A stretch of 63,903 bases of DNA, the filler included, from Licmophora abbreviata (lineage: Eukaryota): the NCBI GenBank assembly GCA_900291995.1. It is 12 parts of 12 records of this genome, joined end to end, with 100 filler letters (N's around TTAATTAATTAA, not from the genome) between each part and the next. Parts side by side here need not be neighbours in the genome. Positions count along the whole stretch, not along the records: positions 13,351 to 15,341 come from OLMU01004452.1; 11 more parts are not named here. The stretch is one strand, 5' to 3'. Shown here in pieces: positions 10,986 through 17,237 of the stretch (positions are counted from its first letter, which is position 1; every line of letters begins with the position of its first letter). The notes beneath the pieces were generated by a model. That model was not told the origin of the DNA. It did no database searches and worked only from the letters and a program-made list of their open reading frames with translations. Position numbers and translations under genes: made by a program.

Positions 10986-13223
10986 TTATGAGAGGTAGAT
11001 CACAATGGCACTGACATTGTCGGAAGTGCCTTTCTCCAGAGCCATGGAGCATAGCTCCCGCGCAGCTTCATCGGCACTCAAGCCACTGCTGCGAAAGTAT
11101 GTTACGTCTCGACCAACCTCGTCATTGTCCATGACTTCAAACAATCCATCACTAGCCAAGACTATGACACCATTTTCAGTCGATACTGTCGTGACATCCG
11201 GGTCGCTGATTATTCCCATTGAAGTGGCAAATGGTCCCTCGAGAGATCGACTAACAGCGTACTCATAGTCGCCAACAGGTAGGAACCATCGTGATAGACT
11301 ACAGGCTGGCATCGAGTATCCCTGATCTTGTCCACGCTCGAAGCGTTCTATCTCGACCTCAGGCGAATGGTCCCGAGTAGCAAACACGACGCTCCCTTCA
11401 CTGTTCACTAGTAAGGTACGGGAGTCACCGCAGTTCAGAACAGACACCTTTCCTTCTTCCATGGCTACGACAGTCGCAGTGGTTCCAGCAACCAAGGAGG
11501 TTGAACCTGTGCTGGCCGTCAAGGTACCCTCCATCTCATCGTAGTCGGCGGTACACTCGTCTAGCTCGCATCCATCGCGATAAGTGGTGCAGGTAGCATC
11601 CCAAGCGGCTTGTAAGGCTTGGGCAACATTCTTCTGCCTACGAAACTCCTCCATGGCCAGAAAAGGCATGAGCTGTTGCGCCGCGTGTGATGCCGCAGTC
11701 CCTCCGTGCCCGTCAAAGACAGCAGCAAGCAAGACTTCCTTCTCGTCGTGCATTTCTTGCAATATGAACGCATCTTCTTGAGCTTTGCGTCGACCTTTGA
11801 CCGACCAGGCACCTTGTTCCACAACACGAGCGTGGCTCGTCGTCGTTTCTTCGAGGGCCTTCGGCGCCTCCCGGATTGACCGTCTATCAAAGTGCAGCTT
11901 GACGTACTTGGCGGAGGCGGGCTGCTTCTCGAGCTGTGCCAGCAAAGAAGGGGCATGTCAGAAGACATGCTCTCGCAACTCAACGACGAGCGTCAAACGT
12001 CACTTACCATTTCCAAGACCTTTTCAAAGCCACTGCTGGCAAGGGGGAGTTCGCCAACTCCCTGCAGTCNNNNNNNNNNNNNNNNNNNNNNNNNNNNNNN
12101 NNNNNNNNNNNNNTTAATTAATTAANNNNNNNNNNNNNNNNNNNNNNNNNNNNNNNNNNNNNNNNNNNNACATGCTCTCGCAACTCAACGACGAGCGTCA
12201 AACGTCACTTACCATTTCCAAGACCTTTTCAAAGCCACTGCTGGCAAGGGGGAGTTCGCCAACTCCCTGTAGTCGGTCTCCGATTTCGAATATTCCCATC
12301 TTGGCAGCCTGACTGTCCGGAACAATTTTCTGAACAAAAACATCGCCAGACTGAGCGTTCTGTGTTGCCTCCTTCCACCGGAGATCCTCAACTTCTTGAT
12401 CGGCTTCTGCCAAGATCAGTCCCAATGGTAAAGCCCGTCGAAAGGTGGCAACATAGTGAAGCGGTCGAGGGCCCATGGCAGGTCCTTCCGAAGGAATCTC
12501 GCAAGTTTGCATGATTTCCATCACCGAGGCAAAGAAGGGACCGTCCGCCAGCTCTTCTCCTTGACGAATCTGGCGGAATCTAGTGAGTGCAGGGCTGGAA
12601 GCTATTCTCTGCTCGGGGTCCTTTCTCAACATTTCGCTCAGTAGTTTCCAAAGTCCCGGCCGTTCCCCAAAATACTCGAGCGCCTCCTGCAATCCAGACG
12701 GACGAACCTTGGAAGACAGCTCTCTCGACAACCAAGCATCGAGGTCGCAATTGGCATCTTCGACTTGCTGGTGAAAGCCCGCATCCATACGTTCGTCTAA
12801 AAAGTTGAAGATCAACTGACAAATAATCAGTGCAGCTGAAAACACGTCAAACTGAAACGGGGCGCTGTGTGCAGTGATAGGTGTGCGTATGGGTGTGTGT
12901 CAGAGGACAGCCATCGCAACTCAAACAACATGAACAACGAGCGAACAACAAAGTACGAACCGATCGTGACGGATAAAGGTTTCTGGTGCTGCGTATATGG
13001 GAGAGACTGCCACACGTCCTTCATCTTCAAGTCCCACCCGTTTCTTTCCTCCCCAAAACTTGTTGGACTTGATCGGATCCATGTCGGCTGTCGGCGGGAG
13101 GAAACAGAAGGAAAGGGCAATGTTGGTATCACCATCACGCAACGACCCCCCTCTTTACTGACGACCTCGAAACGGCGTTCTTCCACACGTACCTGCAGAC
13201 CCAAAATCAATCAGCACCAGTGA
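10986..13223 (-). CDS. STN7/Stt7-like protein kinase (C-lobe visible; N-lobe lost in gap) + PDZ-like domain + PP2C phosphatase. Exons 13223-13193, 13087-12961, 12864-12213, 11933-10986
   Basis: Spliced reading LVLIDFGSAADM...SPIYAAPETFI...FDVFSAALIICQLIF...MLRKDPEQRI. PDZ-like PLGLIL...VQKIVPDSQAA...IGDRL. PP2C motifs QEDAF, VFDGHGG, NCGDSR, VSRSL, LASDGLF, GTSDNVS. All introns GT-AG. Confidence 0.8.
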
Positions 13224-13717
13224 CTGCACAGAGGTCACACACAGAGAAGGNNNNNNNNNNNNNNNNNNNNNNNNNNNNNNNNNNNNNNNNNNNNTTAATT
13301 AATTAANNNNNNNNNNNNNNNNNNNNNNNNNNNNNNNNNNNNNNNNNNNNCGAACAGCAACACGGGCAAGGTGAGCAGCGCTGCTGCCGATGAAGAGAGA
13401 CAGATGACGACGAGAGAGATATCGAGAAGTTAAAATGGGAGAGCGCGACGGACCTCGCGACTATTGATGTTCGACCGAGTTATTAGAGGGAGACTTGAGT
13501 GAGTCAAGTCTCAGGACGTCGCGGAAAAGCCAAATTGGACAAAGGGTATACGTCGTTACGTCGTGTCACATCGACACGTTAAGCCGGGGTCTCAAAGTTG
13601 CTAGCCTGCCTTTCCATCCTTACCTAGTCTACAACTATTCGCTGTCTGGGACAAACCTGAGGATTGCGAAAGCTTGACTCTGATACAGATCCCCAATGAG
13701 CCAGGAGGTTGACCCAA

Positions 13718-15295
13718 TTACACTCGTCCATCAAGCCACGTGTCGATCAAAGTTCTGGCCAGCACACCTTTGGGTGGTATCAGCAGCTCGATGCTAGGAT
13801 CCGCTTGTATCGCTGCTTCTGCAACTTCTCTTCGCATGACGGCACCCGGTACGGTCGCGGCCATCCCGACTTGGGTCCTATCGAACCATGTCGCCTCGAC
13901 CAGTTCGTCTCTATCAATGTCAAGAGCTTGCGCCTCGTCCGCTGTCGCCGAAAATCCAATCATGATGCTCTGAGGAAAGGGCCATGGCTGGGAGCCAATG
14001 TAGTTAACAGAGGACTCGTCAATACGAATGCCAGTCTCTTCATAAACCTCTCGTGCGACTGCCTTTTCGAAAGTCTCGCCAGCTTCCACGAATCCGGCAA
14101 GAGCCGTGTGCATTCTCGCGGGATGGCGAGGAGACCGAGCCAACAGGACACGTTCCTTGTCACGACTCATGATCACGGCAATCATGGAGGGGTCCTGGCG
14201 AGGCCAGGACTGCTGGCCGCATCCGGTACATTTACGACTCGTGCCTCCGTCAATCAGATTGGTAGCAGAACCACATACCGGACAAAAAGGTGCTCGGCGT
14301 TGCCATTGTGCGAGCGCTGTGGCATGTAGGACCAGTTCGTTGTGAATGGGAGATAGCAAGGGCGCTCCGGTTCGCGTATCCCCAAAGTCGGCTCCTCCTG
14401 AGACTTTCGCGGCTGCCGCGCGGACTGCGTCCGGGTCGCTGGCATGCAGATCGACTCCAAAAACAGCTTCTTTGCTATCAAGCAAACCAAGGAACGTCGT
14501 GACTGATTCTGAACCAGTCTCCTGGCAAATAGAATCTACCTGTTCCTTACTTAGCTTAGCCAGTTCCCAGCCCTCGAAAAATAGGGCCTGGTTACCCTGC
14601 AACACAACGTACTTGGCATCCTTTGCAAGTTCGTCAAGTCTTGCTGGGTTGGAGCGCAATTGAGTGGCGCGGTCCAAATGTCTACCAGATGCCTCTTCCT
14701 GCGCTAGCCCTACCGAATTGAGAAAAGCGGAGTCCGCAATGCCAGTATGCAGCGCGTCAAGGGCTAGATCAGCTGCCTTGTCAGCAAACAGCCGCATATT
14801 CTGTACGCGGTCGGCGTGCGTCGACCGTATCACGTCCTGTTTGACAACTTTGACACTACCGTCATAATCTCGAGCTGCAATCGCAATCGCTGCAAAACCT
14901 CGGTCCAGCCCGTTCGGTCGAAATGTCGGACCCGCTGCTCCTCCTTCTGCAATCGCAAAGTCGGTTCCAAGTTCTTTGCAGAAGGCCACTGCTGTCTTGC
15001 TCGTCCAGTCCAACTTGGAGCGCACATATCGATCGGCATCACTCTCAGCTCCGCCATTGGACTCAAGCGGTGCCACCAGGGCATCATGCAGTTTGCCATC
15101 ATTCAACAAGAGGGGCTTGGCGCGGCGGGTATTGTAGGCCACGGACCCGCCAAAAAACACAGAGGATGAGCCCGGCACGGCCATGATGGACGCGTTGATG
15201 AGGCCACCGCAACAGCTTTCCACGACTGTACATGTCGCTTTTTTGTATTTGAGGGCTGAGACTAGCCGCAAGAAGCTAGGAGAGGTAAGGGACAT
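13718..15295 (-). CDS. Fusion of a CinA/PncC-like (NMN deamidase-type) domain and NudC-type NADH pyrophosphatase (Zn ribbon + Nudix)
   Basis: N-terminal VESCCGGLI, VPGSSSVFFGG, AEGGAAGP. C-terminal CPVCG...CTGC Zn ribbon, Nudix box GFVEAGETFEKAVAREVYEETG and NudC signature SQPWPFP. One uninterrupted 525-aa ORF. Confidence 0.88.
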   Translation of the reverse strand: MSLTSPSFLRLVSALKYKKATCTVVESCCGGLINASIMAVPGSSSVFFGGSVAYNTRRAKPLLLNDGKLHDALVAPLESNGGAESDADRYVRSKLDWTSKTAVAFCKELGTDFAIAEGGAAGPTFRPNGLDRGFAAIAIAARDYDGSVKVVKQDVIRSTHADRVQNMRLFADKAADLALDALHTGIADSAFLNSVGLAQEEASGRHLDRATQLRSNPARLDELAKDAKYVVLQGNQALFFEGWELAKLSKEQVDSICQETGSESVTTFLGLLDSKEAVFGVDLHASDPDAVRAAAAKVSGGADFGDTRTGAPLLSPIHNELVLHATALAQWQRRAPFCPVCGSATNLIDGGTSRKCTGCGQQSWPRQDPSMIAVIMSRDKERVLLARSPRHPARMHTALAGFVEAGETFEKAVAREVYEETGIRIDESSVNYIGSQPWPFPQSIMIGFSATADEAQALDIDRDELVEATWFDRTQVGMAATVPGAVMRREVAEAAIQADPSIELLIPPKGVLARTLIDTWLDGRV

Positions 15296-15539
15296 GGCAA
15301 TACAGGAAGGTTCCGTCCATGTCGCCAGAACACTGTGATGTNNNNNNNNNNNNNNNNNNNNNNNNNNNNNNNNNNNNNNNNNNNNTTAATTAATTAANNN
15401 NNNNNNNNNNNNNNNNNNNNNNNNNNNNNNNNNNNNNNNNNCGACAGGTCTACCTGACGACTATGCAATCTTGAATCGACTCCATCAGCCTTGACGCAAG
15501 TTCTCAAACTGGGATTGCAGCGGTACTGACTCAAATTAG

Positions 15540-17237
15540 ATGATGGAATCGGAGATCATTCGGAGGGGGAAGGTGGTATCTGTAGACATCATGAATGTGA
15601 AATCCAGCGGCAGCATGCGAATCGAGATGTCGCTTCTCGCGCGATGTTGTAAACAGGCTGTACAGGAGAAACAATGCTTGGACGATCAATTGCTTCTGTA
15701 TGCTCCAAAAGAACTACTCGTAGACGACAATGAGCGAATCAGAAGGACTGTTCGGAAGAAGAGAAGGGGACGATTTCCGTTCTTTCGTGGGGACATGAAA
15801 GCACCTACAGCGCTGGACGAGCTCACGGTACATCCGATGCTACTACTGCTGATGAGCAAGGCGCTGAATTGCGACCATCCTCGGCTGCTGGATGCGTACT
15901 TGACCACCATTCATGGCGAGTCCGATAATATTCAGAGATACGCGGGCGGAGATGCTTCTGTTGCTGATCGGAAGCGTGTACCAACTGTGGTGGTGCTGAA
16001 CCTGACGTTGGATGCTGACATCGCCAATCAGACTGTGCAGTACTGTCGAGTGGAAGGTGCGTCTGGTCTTCTCAGTACAAGACCGTCTCTGAGAATCCTA
16101 TATCACAGTGGCACTTCAATGCAGTACATGCCGCATGGTTTCATAAGATATTTAGAGCATGCGGAGGCATGGATCAGAAGTCTCAATTGTGGGCAAAGAA
16201 CCGCTCTAGGCTTTCCATCTCCCAGTGACGAGTACTGGAGGGACAACAGTAGCTTGCAGCAGGTCGCGTTGCGGTACCCTGGAATGAAATTTGACCTATA
16301 TCGGACAGCAAGTGTAACGTCACCGATACAACAGTCGATTCCTGCACCGCCAGATGGAGCTGTTTCGACATGCGACCCAAACTTGACACATCGTGATTCG
16401 GCGCGTTGGATCTTTCCTGAACGGGTTCTTATTGATAACAATGACATGGTTGTACTCTCGGACCAGGAGATACGGCAGTTTCGAGACAACGGGTACTTGT
16501 TCCTCGAAGGCATTTGGCCTCAGAGGCTGATAGATGACGCGGCCGAGGCTGCGCGAGAGCTTTGGCCGGACAAAGTAGGTACTTCGCAAAGTCCAGACTC
16601 GCCTTTTCAGTTTCCTTTTGCCGCCGGCTCGCGACTCCGAGATATTACACTGTACCGGCATATCTGGAGTGTGGCATGTCAGCTGCTTCAAGTGGACAGG
16701 AAAGACTTGCGCATCATGCAATCCGCATGTTTCAGTAAGCGAGGTCCTCCCAGTGAGGATGCGGCGAGTGATCCCAAAGTCGGTGACCCGTTTGTAAATG
16801 GGAATCAGCCCATGCACCAAGACTTCGGTAGCAATACGCTACTCGTTCCCGCAAGGTCCAAGTATTGTTGGCAGGAACCCGAGGAGGTGCAGGGAATCCT
16901 CTACTACAACGATCACAAAGGGGTGGATGGTGGGACGGCGTTCGTACCTGGGTTGTCTCATACAGGCGCCGATCCGGTTCACAAGGGATGGCTACCGGAT
17001 AATATGGAGAATGATCCGCGACCAGCTCTGTATCGTGCTGAACGAAAGGTAGCATACTCGAAAGGGTCGATTCTTTTGTTTCAGCTTGGAACATGGCATC
17101 GAGGGACCCCCGTCGCAGCCGGCGCCATTCGACGCGTTCAGCATTTGTGTTTCAAGAGGGCAAATGCAACCTGGGTGGGAGGCTCGGCAGAGTTCGGACA
17201 GGCCGATGGTATTTTTGAGGGTCTTCCTGTCCCATAA
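15540..17237 (+). CDS. Fe(II)/2-oxoglutarate dioxygenase of the PhyH family with a degenerate PhyH-like N-terminal half
   Basis: QFRDNGYLFLEG start motif, HxD (MHQDF), GGTAFVPG, distal His (WHRG) and RR motif. Intronless ORF. Confidence 0.75.
   Translation: MMESEIIRRGKVVSVDIMNVKSSGSMRIEMSLLARCCKQAVQEKQCLDDQLLLYAPKELLVDDNERIRRTVRKKRRGRFPFFRGDMKAPTALDELTVHPMLLLLMSKALNCDHPRLLDAYLTTIHGESDNIQRYAGGDASVADRKRVPTVVVLNLTLDADIANQTVQYCRVEGASGLLSTRPSLRILYHSGTSMQYMPHGFIRYLEHAEAWIRSLNCGQRTALGFPSPSDEYWRDNSSLQQVALRYPGMKFDLYRTASVTSPIQQSIPAPPDGAVSTCDPNLTHRDSARWIFPERVLIDNNDMVVLSDQEIRQFRDNGYLFLEGIWPQRLIDDAAEAARELWPDKVGTSQSPDSPFQFPFAAGSRLRDITLYRHIWSVACQLLQVDRKDLRIMQSACFSKRGPPSEDAASDPKVGDPFVNGNQPMHQDFGSNTLLVPARSKYCWQEPEEVQGILYYNDHKGVDGGTAFVPGLSHTGADPVHKGWLPDNMENDPRPALYRAERKVAYSKGSILLFQLGTWHRGTPVAAGAIRRVQHLCFKRANATWVGGSAEFGQADGIFEGLPVP

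Follow-up and report, generated by a model that had tools for sequence, protein, structure and literature searches.

NudC-type enzymes cleave nicotinamide adenine dinucleotide (NAD), as NAD+ or NADH, or 5′-NAD-capped RNA, releasing adenosine monophosphate (or 5′-P-RNA) and nicotinamide mononucleotide, NMN(H). Within this group, NUDT12 carries ankyrin repeats at its N-terminus. In bacteria, NAD-recycling enzymes are found fused to pyrophosphatases: PncC to the COG1058 ADP-ribose pyrophosphatase, and NadM to an ADP-ribose pyrophosphatase of the Nudix type (as described in PMC3680494). The former arrangement, COG1058 followed by PncC, is the bacterial CinA protein (S. oneidensis, T. thermophilus), which has been tied to the recycling of NAD breakdown products (PMC3680494, PMC4246079). 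The CinA domain is also mentioned as “occasionally fused with other domains”, such cases being excluded from the analysis in question (PMC3855486). Here we describe a gene of the diatom Licmophora abbreviata (assembly GCA_900291995.1), located in a stretch of 63,903 nucleotides (hereafter the window), in which a CinA-like domain is followed by a linker and a NudC enzyme. The gene consists of a single uninterrupted, ATG-started open reading frame (ORF) on the minus strand, encoding 525 amino acids plus a stop codon (Table 1).

The NudC half of the protein is complete, comprising the N-terminal domain, a four-cysteine zinc ribbon, the Nudix box and the NADH-pyrophosphatase signature, and residues 206-525 show the same three-part build as the NudC/NUDT12/Npy1 type (E. 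coli NudC 5iw4/1vk6, M. abscessus NudC 8zb3, mammalian NUDT12 6o3p/6scx). Pfam recognised NUDIX (PF00293, E 1.3e-18) and Zn_ribbon_NUD (PF09297, E 5.1e-8), while NUDIX-like (PF09296, residues 228-331) scored 20.4 bits, just below its cut-off of 22, which is passed in relatives. The NCBIfam equivalog for NAD(+) diphosphatase, NF001299, reached 215.4 bits over residues 302-522 (cut-off 158). Sequence matches to NudC and NUDT12 chains in the PDB had E values of 1e-36 to 1e-31, and in a Foldseek search with the protein model the C-terminal 320 residues matched the NudC enzymes of M. abscessus and E. coli as well as NUDT12 (E 5e-26 to 1e-18), with about 300-340 aligned columns. When aligned with E. 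coli NudC, both CxxC pairs, the Nudix box GFVEAGETFEKAVAREVYEETGI and SQPWPFPQS correspond residue for residue; the Nudix box is near-identical, conforms to Gx5Ex7REUxEExGU and holds the three catalytic glutamates, and the signature is identical. SQPWPFPxS has been defined as the signature of NADH pyrophosphatases (PMC6856373, PMC5389931), and in E. coli NudC E174, E177 and E178 were described as catalytic and nicotinamide contacts as falling within the signature (PMC6856373). Cys338, Glu416 and Glu420 do not vary among 100 relatives, and at least 90% of these keep Glu419 and each of the other three cysteines. The diatom protein differs from E. coli NudC in a family-specific insertion of ~28 residues before the C-terminal LLIPPKG helix, and its ~190-residue N-terminal CinA-like domain is found in none of the solved NudC/NUDT12 enzymes. 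On these sequence features, NAD(H)/NAD-cap pyrophosphatase activity of the NudC half is very likely.

The N-terminal 185 residues form a CinA-fold domain that belongs to a Glu-bearing subfamily distinct from canonical PncC. The Pfam family CinA (PF02464) matched with 68.3 bits (E 7.4e-19, cut-off 23.5), and Foldseek superposed the domain on the CinA structures 5kvk (template modelling score, TM, 0.81) and 2a9s (TM 0.78). It therefore shares the fold of the PncC/CinA C-terminal deamidases (A. tumefaciens 2A9S, E. coli YgaD, T. thermophilus CinA 4CT8/4UOC). An AlphaFold2 (AF2) model built with 100 relatives in the alignment had a mean predicted local distance difference test (pLDDT) score of 92.8 and a predicted TM score of 0.73; its only disordered stretch, residues 194-203 with pLDDT <50, lies between the two halves. 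The joining of a CinA-type domain to a complete NudC, as proposed in the first-pass annotation of this DNA, is thus borne out by Pfam, NF001299 and Foldseek, and the four motifs which that annotation quoted (ESCCGG, YNTRRAK, AEGGAAGP and DRVQNMRLFA) are all present at the given positions. It was also right that the fusion partner is not the COG1058/MocF domain found in bacteria.

In A. tumefaciens CinA (AtCinA) the substitutions S31A, Y58A, K63A and R145A abolish all activity, while T105A keeps ~6% of the efficiency (PMC5384747). The equivalents of these four essential residues are all kept in the window protein: Ser27, Tyr54 and Lys60 according to the alignment, and Arg163 according to motif position only. 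Gly42 and Ser44 are equated with G46 and S48 of AtCinA in the profile alignment, and the residues predicted by comparison with solved PncC structures to hold the phosphate and ribose are kept as well (Gly42/Ser44, Tyr54, Gly119-Pro123 and Arg163). Positions of this phosphate/ribose type are invariant in the family (Gly42, Ser44, Tyr54, Gly119, Ala120, Gly122, Pro123, Arg163), as are two family-specific residues, Lys94 and Cys106. The diatom N-domain has in common with canonical PncC ES(C)xGG, G(A/S)S and the equivalents of Y58, K63 and R145, whereas the (S/T)GIAGP of canonical PncC is replaced by EGGA(A/S/T)GP.

The first-pass annotation had noted AEGGAAGP and DR..NM..FA as departures from the canonical motifs. 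They are indeed departures, but they do not represent a one-off decay: they are hallmarks of a subfamily, shared with proteobacterial proteins of ~160 amino acids. A profile of the N-domain (alignment A1, 11 sequences) was searched against 1.84 billion cluster representatives, yielding 7,122 proteins at E<=1e-3, of which 59 reached E<=1e-30. The best non-fusion matches were bacterial proteins of ~160-166 amino acids scoring 80-92 bits, as compared to only 15-33 bits for the solved canonical CinA/PncC chains. These bacterial proteins carry AE(S/T/G)GA(A/T)GP and DR..NM..FA as the diatom N-domain does. We provisionally define the subfamily by five blocks, AE(S/T/G)GA(A/S/T)GP, DR..NM..FA, ES..GG, PG(A/S)S and GG.V.Y, all of which the window protein shares with the bacterial members. 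The equivalent of Glu117 was found in 121/121 sequences of the family, in 16/16 bacterial members and in the 12/12 fusions to another Nudix type discussed below. No characterised member and no solved structure of this subfamily is apparent.

The bacterial members are annotated as “CinA family protein / PncC family amidohydrolase”, and include the Novosphingobium “CinA family protein” WP_295524789.1 and proteins from Bradyrhizobium, Rhodopseudomonas, Betaproteobacteria, Binataceae and Methylomirabilota. They barely pass TIGR00199 and fall far below the cut-off of the PncC equivalog. Unlike the diatom protein they stand alone, without a Nudix partner, and their helix before the EGGA strand is shorter (20 residues from the conserved Tyr to Glu, versus 27). 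A CinA-related equivalog of 175 positions, NF002972, named “2-oxo-tetronate isomerase”, gave weak matches to 12 of the 13 bacterial members scanned. In a search for loci, the diatom N-domain profile recovered three bacterial loci only, while a profile of six closer sequences matched 594, and 80 of these were retained. The 242 neighbouring ORFs at these 80 loci, called crudely as the longest ORFs, included no conserved NAD-related partner, a weak negative given that this procedure performs poorly at high GC content. The commonest neighbour family was Amidohydro_2, at nine loci only, and further neighbours comprised HlyD, Rieske, DNA methylase, M20 peptidase, MutY and ABC transporter. A word-indexed search for short relatives of the N-domain returned 18 sequences, all resembling truncated fragments of the diatom type, and no stand-alone bacterial protein.

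A Pfam scan of 67 of the 150 profile matches listed, short fragments being left out, placed sixteen proteins in the class of CinA with a NudC-type Nudix and twelve in that of CinA with PF18290, with or without PF00293; the rest had CinA alone or other partners. Among the latter were a sulfotransferase followed by CinA (P0224, 458 amino acids), a calcineurin-like phosphoesterase (metallophosphatase) followed by CinA (P0235, 489 amino acids), and a protein of 279 amino acids with CinA and an ArsC-family domain (P0276), whose cluster members lie on megabase-sized contigs. A longer protein, P0172, of ~1,015 amino acids (1,010-1,016 across its cluster) has CinA at residues 33-169 and NUDIX at 463-574, and reads EGCTGG and AQNGATGP where the Ser and Glu motifs would stand; the ~440 residues after its NUDIX domain had no Pfam match at E<=1e-4.

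The twelve fusions with PF18290, with or without PF00293, show that the Glu-bearing CinA subfamily also precedes a different Nudix family, with members in Euglena gracilis, Gymnodinium smaydae and Effrenium voratum. For the C-terminal part of the Euglena protein, the nearest matches are Arabidopsis Nudix hydrolase 7 (4zb3, E 1e-32) and NUDT6. NUDT7 is an ADP-ribose/NADH pyrophosphatase. These NUDT7/NUDT6-like fusions have the same N-terminal CinA subfamily, followed by Nudix, as in diatoms, but the partner is not NudC and Ala prevails at the Ser position; all twelve retain the Glu of xExGxxGP. Bacterial CinA likewise combines a dinucleotide pyrophosphatase with a CinA fold in the context of NAD breakdown products (PMC3680494, PMC4246079). 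The pyrophosphatase fold differs, being Nudix/NudC in the diatom and MoeA-like COG1058 in bacteria, and the domain order is reversed, with CinA first in the diatom protein. The expected substrate would be NAD(H) for the diatom fusion instead of ADP-ribose, and the two reactions, which are not consecutive in bacterial CinA, could be consecutive in the diatom protein. That such pairings with Nudix or other pyrophosphatases recur is a strong argument for the CinA fold acting on, or sensing, the products of dinucleotide pyrophosphatases.

The CinA-NudC fusion itself is present throughout a lineage. Both CinA and NUDIX were found in 116 of the 120 best full-length relatives, the remaining four being shorter models (419-446 amino acids, 79-84% coverage), and in all 120 relatives listed by a second search that started from the most divergent member. 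Among the relatives listed, all named sources belong either to the diatoms, with Seminavis, Mayamaea, Cylindrotheca (two species), Fistulifera, Nitzschia (two species), Amphora, Corethron, Thalassiosira and Pseudo-nitzschia delicatissima, or to the pelagophytes, with Pelagomonas calceolata and Chrysophaeum taylorii. Four relatives are MMETSP transcripts marked “type:complete”, so that in related species a single transcribed ORF spans the fusion. Two diatom clusters in the ESM Atlas, of 56 and 54 members, show the CinA-NudC architecture. The Atlas also offered leads (score 0.78) to bacterial CinA+NUDIX clusters of ~300 amino acids in Chloroflexota and Verrucomicrobiota.

Some relatives already bear the JGI pipeline label “NADH pyrophosphatase NudC / NMN deamidase PncC”; the fusion is thus auto-annotated in public databases and does not constitute a singular discovery. 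The first-pass annotation had itself listed, as something that would speak against its proposal, that the fusion be already described and widespread. It is widespread in diatoms and pelagophytes, but no paper describing it was found in the full-text literature searched for NudC/CinA/diatom, NMN deamidase/algae and PncC/Nudix fusion, nor did term searches in the text of PMC6856373, PMC5389931, PMC3680494 and PMC3855486, figures and supplements apart, turn it up. The protein represents a new domain combination within a known kind, in which enzymes of NAD recycling are fused with dinucleotide pyrophosphatases, and it draws attention to a CinA subfamily that is as yet uncharacterised.

Our leading hypothesis, to which we assign a probability of about 0.4, is that the protein is an active NAD(H)/NAD-cap pyrophosphatase whose N-domain binds NMN(H) and, in proteins with serine at position 27 (Ser-type) such as that of L. 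abbreviata, probably deamidates it. The NudC half would cleave NAD(H) or NAD-capped RNA, and the NMN(H) set free would be received by the N-domain. Because the Ser27/Lys60 pair is kept, the N-domain of the window protein probably hydrolyses the amide to nicotinic acid mononucleotide, NaMN(H), which would feed the Preiss-Handler route. The protein is probably homodimeric, since NudC and CinA are both homodimers. The disordered linker of the model suggests that the modules are held near each other rather than enclosing a sealed channel. Docking of the N-domain (residues 1-193) on the NudC half (205-525), performed without alignments, gave a score of 0.02 against a mark of 0.34, which speaks neither for nor against an interaction.

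A number of observations weigh against deamidation by the N-domain. Eukaryotic NMN adenylyltransferases usually take NMN directly, so that the need for a deamidase is not obvious. The window protein stayed below the cut-offs of both the PncC equivalog NF002975 (nicotinamide-nucleotide amidase; 26.9 bits, cut-off 212) and TIGR00199 (PncC_domain; 37.4 bits, cut-off 68.9). PncC proteins have been classified by the blocks P-III YxNxxK, P-IV G(A/V)VS and P-VI (S/T)GIAGP (PMC3855486), none of which is found here, though the four essential residues are kept. Thus YxNxxK has become YNTRRAK, with a one-residue insertion and without Asn at +2; G(A/V)VS is absent from the sequence of the window protein; and in AEGGAAGP, which aligns to ATTGVAGP of T. 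thermophilus CinA, Thr105 of AtCinA is replaced by Gly118, with Glu117 as an extra acidic residue before it. Elsewhere in the subfamily the catalytic-type residues vary: the bacterial members have Arg at the position of Lys63 and some of them Gly at the Ser position, which in the twelve NUDT7-type fusions is occupied by Ala (7), Ser (3), Gln (1) or Thr (1). The caution of the first-pass annotation, that deamidase activity was not assured, was justified.

The variation within the CinA-NudC family points in the same direction. Of the 121 sequences aligned, 103 extend over position 27, with Ser in 51 of them and Gln in 52, while position 60 is Lys in 93, Gln in 10 and Arg in 9 of 117; even among the 51 Ser-type sequences, position 60 holds Lys in 39 only, next to Arg (7), Gln (3), Leu (1) and Gly (1). 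Glu26, Tyr54 (117/117), Glu117 and Arg163 (both 121/121) are invariant. A FastTree phylogeny was built from 109 full-length proteins, comprising the 100 sequences of alignment A2 (the 121 less 21 truncated rows) and nine divergent representatives, with a pelagophyte as outgroup. On this tree a single change accounts for the Ser and Gln states: the 53 Gln proteins make up one clade (Shimodaira-Hasegawa-like support 87), and the 56 Ser proteins, all with Ser27, form the remaining grade, which includes the pelagophyte outgroup and the window protein. The nucleophile-position Ser emphasised by the first-pass annotation is therefore kept in the window protein but replaced in one whole clade by a single change. 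Within A2 the two groups are uniform at this position (Ser 48/48, Gln 52/52), and the Ser27 codon of the window protein, AGC, is three substitutions away from either Gln codon. Since both groups include Naviculales and Bacillariales, the split does not follow the species tree, and it is best read as an old paralogy with differential retention. The mean pairwise identities of N-domain and NudC half are 0.597 versus 0.572 in the Ser group and 0.604 versus 0.625 in the Gln group, so the N-domain is not relaxed where Ser is missing. As the N-domain of the Gln clade is as conserved as its NudC half, the family-wide role cannot depend on Ser27. Judging from these substitution patterns, the subfamily can fill its conserved role without a Ser/Lys dyad.

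It is conceivable, though in our view unlikely, that the CinA-like domain catalyses nothing, deamidation included, and instead binds a ligand or has a regulatory role. Its ligand would be NMN(H), NaMN, ADP-ribose or a similar 5′-phosphoribosyl compound, and it might serve feedback or product sensing that tunes NudC, or provide a second dimer interface. Such a role agrees with the undiminished conservation of the N-domain in the Gln clade and with the finding that the phosphate/ribose-binding residues are invariant, whereas the catalytic-type positions 27 and 60 vary. Inactive CinA paralogues are known, moreover, namely E. coli YfaY and YdeJ and fungal CinA (PMC3855486). Among the matches listed, Seminavis, Nitzschia, Cylindrotheca and Amphora were of the Ser type and Mayamaea, Fistulifera, Corethron and Pseudo-nitzschia of the Gln type; one type per named species suggests that either type suffices, but this pattern stems from two lists of the best 120 matches and is possibly incomplete. 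A pure sensor is harder to reconcile with the retention of Ser27 in the window protein and in every other member of the Ser group, mostly together with Lys60, and with the invariance of Glu26 and Glu117 around the pocket, a pattern more usual where chemistry takes place than where a ligand is only bound.

That invariance would be explained if the domain were catalytic without being a Ser/Lys NMN deamidase, with Glu117, possibly assisted by Glu26 or Lys94, carrying out another reaction, a view that we regard as quite unlikely. The options include a Ser-free, water-mediated amide hydrolysis and the cleavage or isomerisation of NMNH, ADP-ribose or ribose-5-phosphate derivatives. Glu117 is conserved in the family, in the bacterial members and in the NUDT7-type fusions alike and directly precedes the oxyanion-hole Gly, Lys94 and Cys106 are both invariant and family-specific, and the subfamily profile separates the bacterial members clearly from canonical CinA/PncC. 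The weak matches to the “2-oxo-tetronate isomerase” equivalog hint that the CinA fold serves more than one reaction. However, the subfamily has no characterised member, three divergent CinA-NudC proteins (P0160, P0165 and P0172) have Gln in place of Glu117, the bacterial neighbourhoods contain no conserved partner that would hint at a substrate, and the pocket-facing position of Glu117 and Lys94 is presumed only. A broader formulation, which we offer tentatively and hold to be somewhat improbable, leaves the activity undefined: the N-domain would represent a non-PncC, Glu-bearing CinA branch, recruited at least twice to Nudix enzymes, that, independently of the Ser, processes or senses NMN(H) as a module controlling the destruction of NAD or NAD-capped RNA. 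This branch would extend over Proteobacteria and algae with complex plastids, joined to NudC in diatoms and pelagophytes and to NUDT7-like enzymes in euglenids and dinoflagellates, and it may occur in the bacterial CinA+NUDIX clusters too.

An artefactual fusion, either a chimeric contig or two adjacent genes read through, might be suspected in view of the very short contig (1,991 bp) and the fragmented assembly, but it is effectively refuted. Over 100 independent sequences that share its architecture are colinear with the ORF along 99-100% of its extent; they are drawn from genomes, metagenomes and complete MMETSP transcripts (it is in this sense of colinearity with relatives that the gene can be called intronless), and the AF2 model is confident across both halves. 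With respect to the start codon, most relatives begin within ~3 residues of the Met of this ORF and the first helix of the model starts at residue 6; the chosen start is thus backed by the starts of relatives and by the onset of the fold. Only 46 nucleotides precede the ATG before the contig ends, and they are open in frame throughout. An out-of-frame ATG lies 25 nucleotides upstream of the start (15296-15320, minus strand) and opens an upstream ORF of 14 codons that overlaps the main ATG. An N-terminal targeting peptide was considered and rejected, given the fold beginning at residue 6 and the similar starts of most relatives, although the contig ends 46 nucleotides upstream; a peroxisomal targeting signal of type 1 was rejected too, the C-terminus reading ...LDGRV, which is not of that kind.

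Table 1. Features of the CinA-NudC gene of L. abbreviata, with positions along the window and residues of the encoded protein.
Feature	Position	Strand	Details
Contig bearing the gene	13351..15341	.	1,991 bp; artificial 100-nt linkers on both sides
Whole ORF	13718..15295	-	525 amino acids + stop; Pfam and NCBIfam matches
CinA-fold domain, AExGAxGP subfamily	14741..15283	-	residues ~5-185; PF02464, Foldseek; pLDDT mostly >90
ESCCGG	15203..15220	-	residues 26-31; Ser27 (codon AGC) = AtCinA Ser31
YNTRRAK	15116..15136	-	residues 54-60; Tyr54 = AtCinA Tyr58, Lys60 = Lys63; HMMER alignment to 2a9s
AEGGAAGP	14927..14950	-	residues 116-123; aligned to ATTGVAGP of T. thermophilus CinA
DRVQNMRLFA	14783..14812	-	residues 162-171; Arg163 likely = AtCinA phosphate-binding Arg145
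Inter-domain linker	14681..14740	-	residues 186-205; pLDDT <50 at 194-203; length variable among relatives
NudC N-terminal rudimentary Nudix-like domain	14303..14680	-	residues 206-331; PF09296 at 228-331, Foldseek
NudC zinc ribbon	14213..14299	-	residues 333-361; Cys338, Cys341, Cys356, Cys359; PF09297
Nudix catalytic domain	13862..14182	-	residues 372-478; PF00293
Nudix box	14027-14095	-	residues 401-423; GFVEAGETFEKAVAREVYEETGI
NADH-pyrophosphatase signature SQPWPFPQS	13967-13993	-	residues 435-443
NudC C-terminal helices	13721..13861	-	residues 479-525; modelled helices 489-498 and 512-521; NF001299 alignment to 522

The window is made up of twelve contigs of 1,081 to 22,282 bp, separated by eleven identical 100-nucleotide spacers, each consisting of 44 N, TTAATTAATTAA and 44 N (eleven present, zero expected by chance). 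The spacers are found at 12070-12169, 13251-13350, 15342-15441 and eight more sites, and adjacency across them is artificial. As the CinA-NudC gene is alone on its contig, the window supplies no genomic context for it, and a tblastn search over the window found a single copy. The ORFs at 15540-17237 and 12198-12845 are not part of its context because they lie on other contigs. The first of these, on the plus strand of the next contig, encodes 565 amino acids with a C-terminal phytanoyl-CoA dioxygenase (PhyH) domain (E 8e-10), and its N-terminal 300 residues had no Pfam match.

Diatoms account for a large share of ocean photosynthesis, and to our knowledge hardly any study has addressed their NAD turnover or NAD-cap RNA metabolism. 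A fusion that is present across the lineage acts as a “Rosetta stone”, tying the CinA fold to mononucleotides generated by Nudix enzymes, and it extends the known trend of NAD-recycling enzymes fusing with dinucleotide pyrophosphatases, as in COG1058-PncC and Nudix-NadM. It also brings to light that a whole CinA subfamily, matched in at least 594 bacterial species as well as in algae, carries the database label “NMN deamidase” without evidence. The natural split between Ser and Gln at position 27 offers an experimental handle on the question of enzyme versus sensor, and if the Ser-independent reading were true, the clade that changed from Ser to Gln would represent a natural mutant series for dissecting the role of the N-domain.

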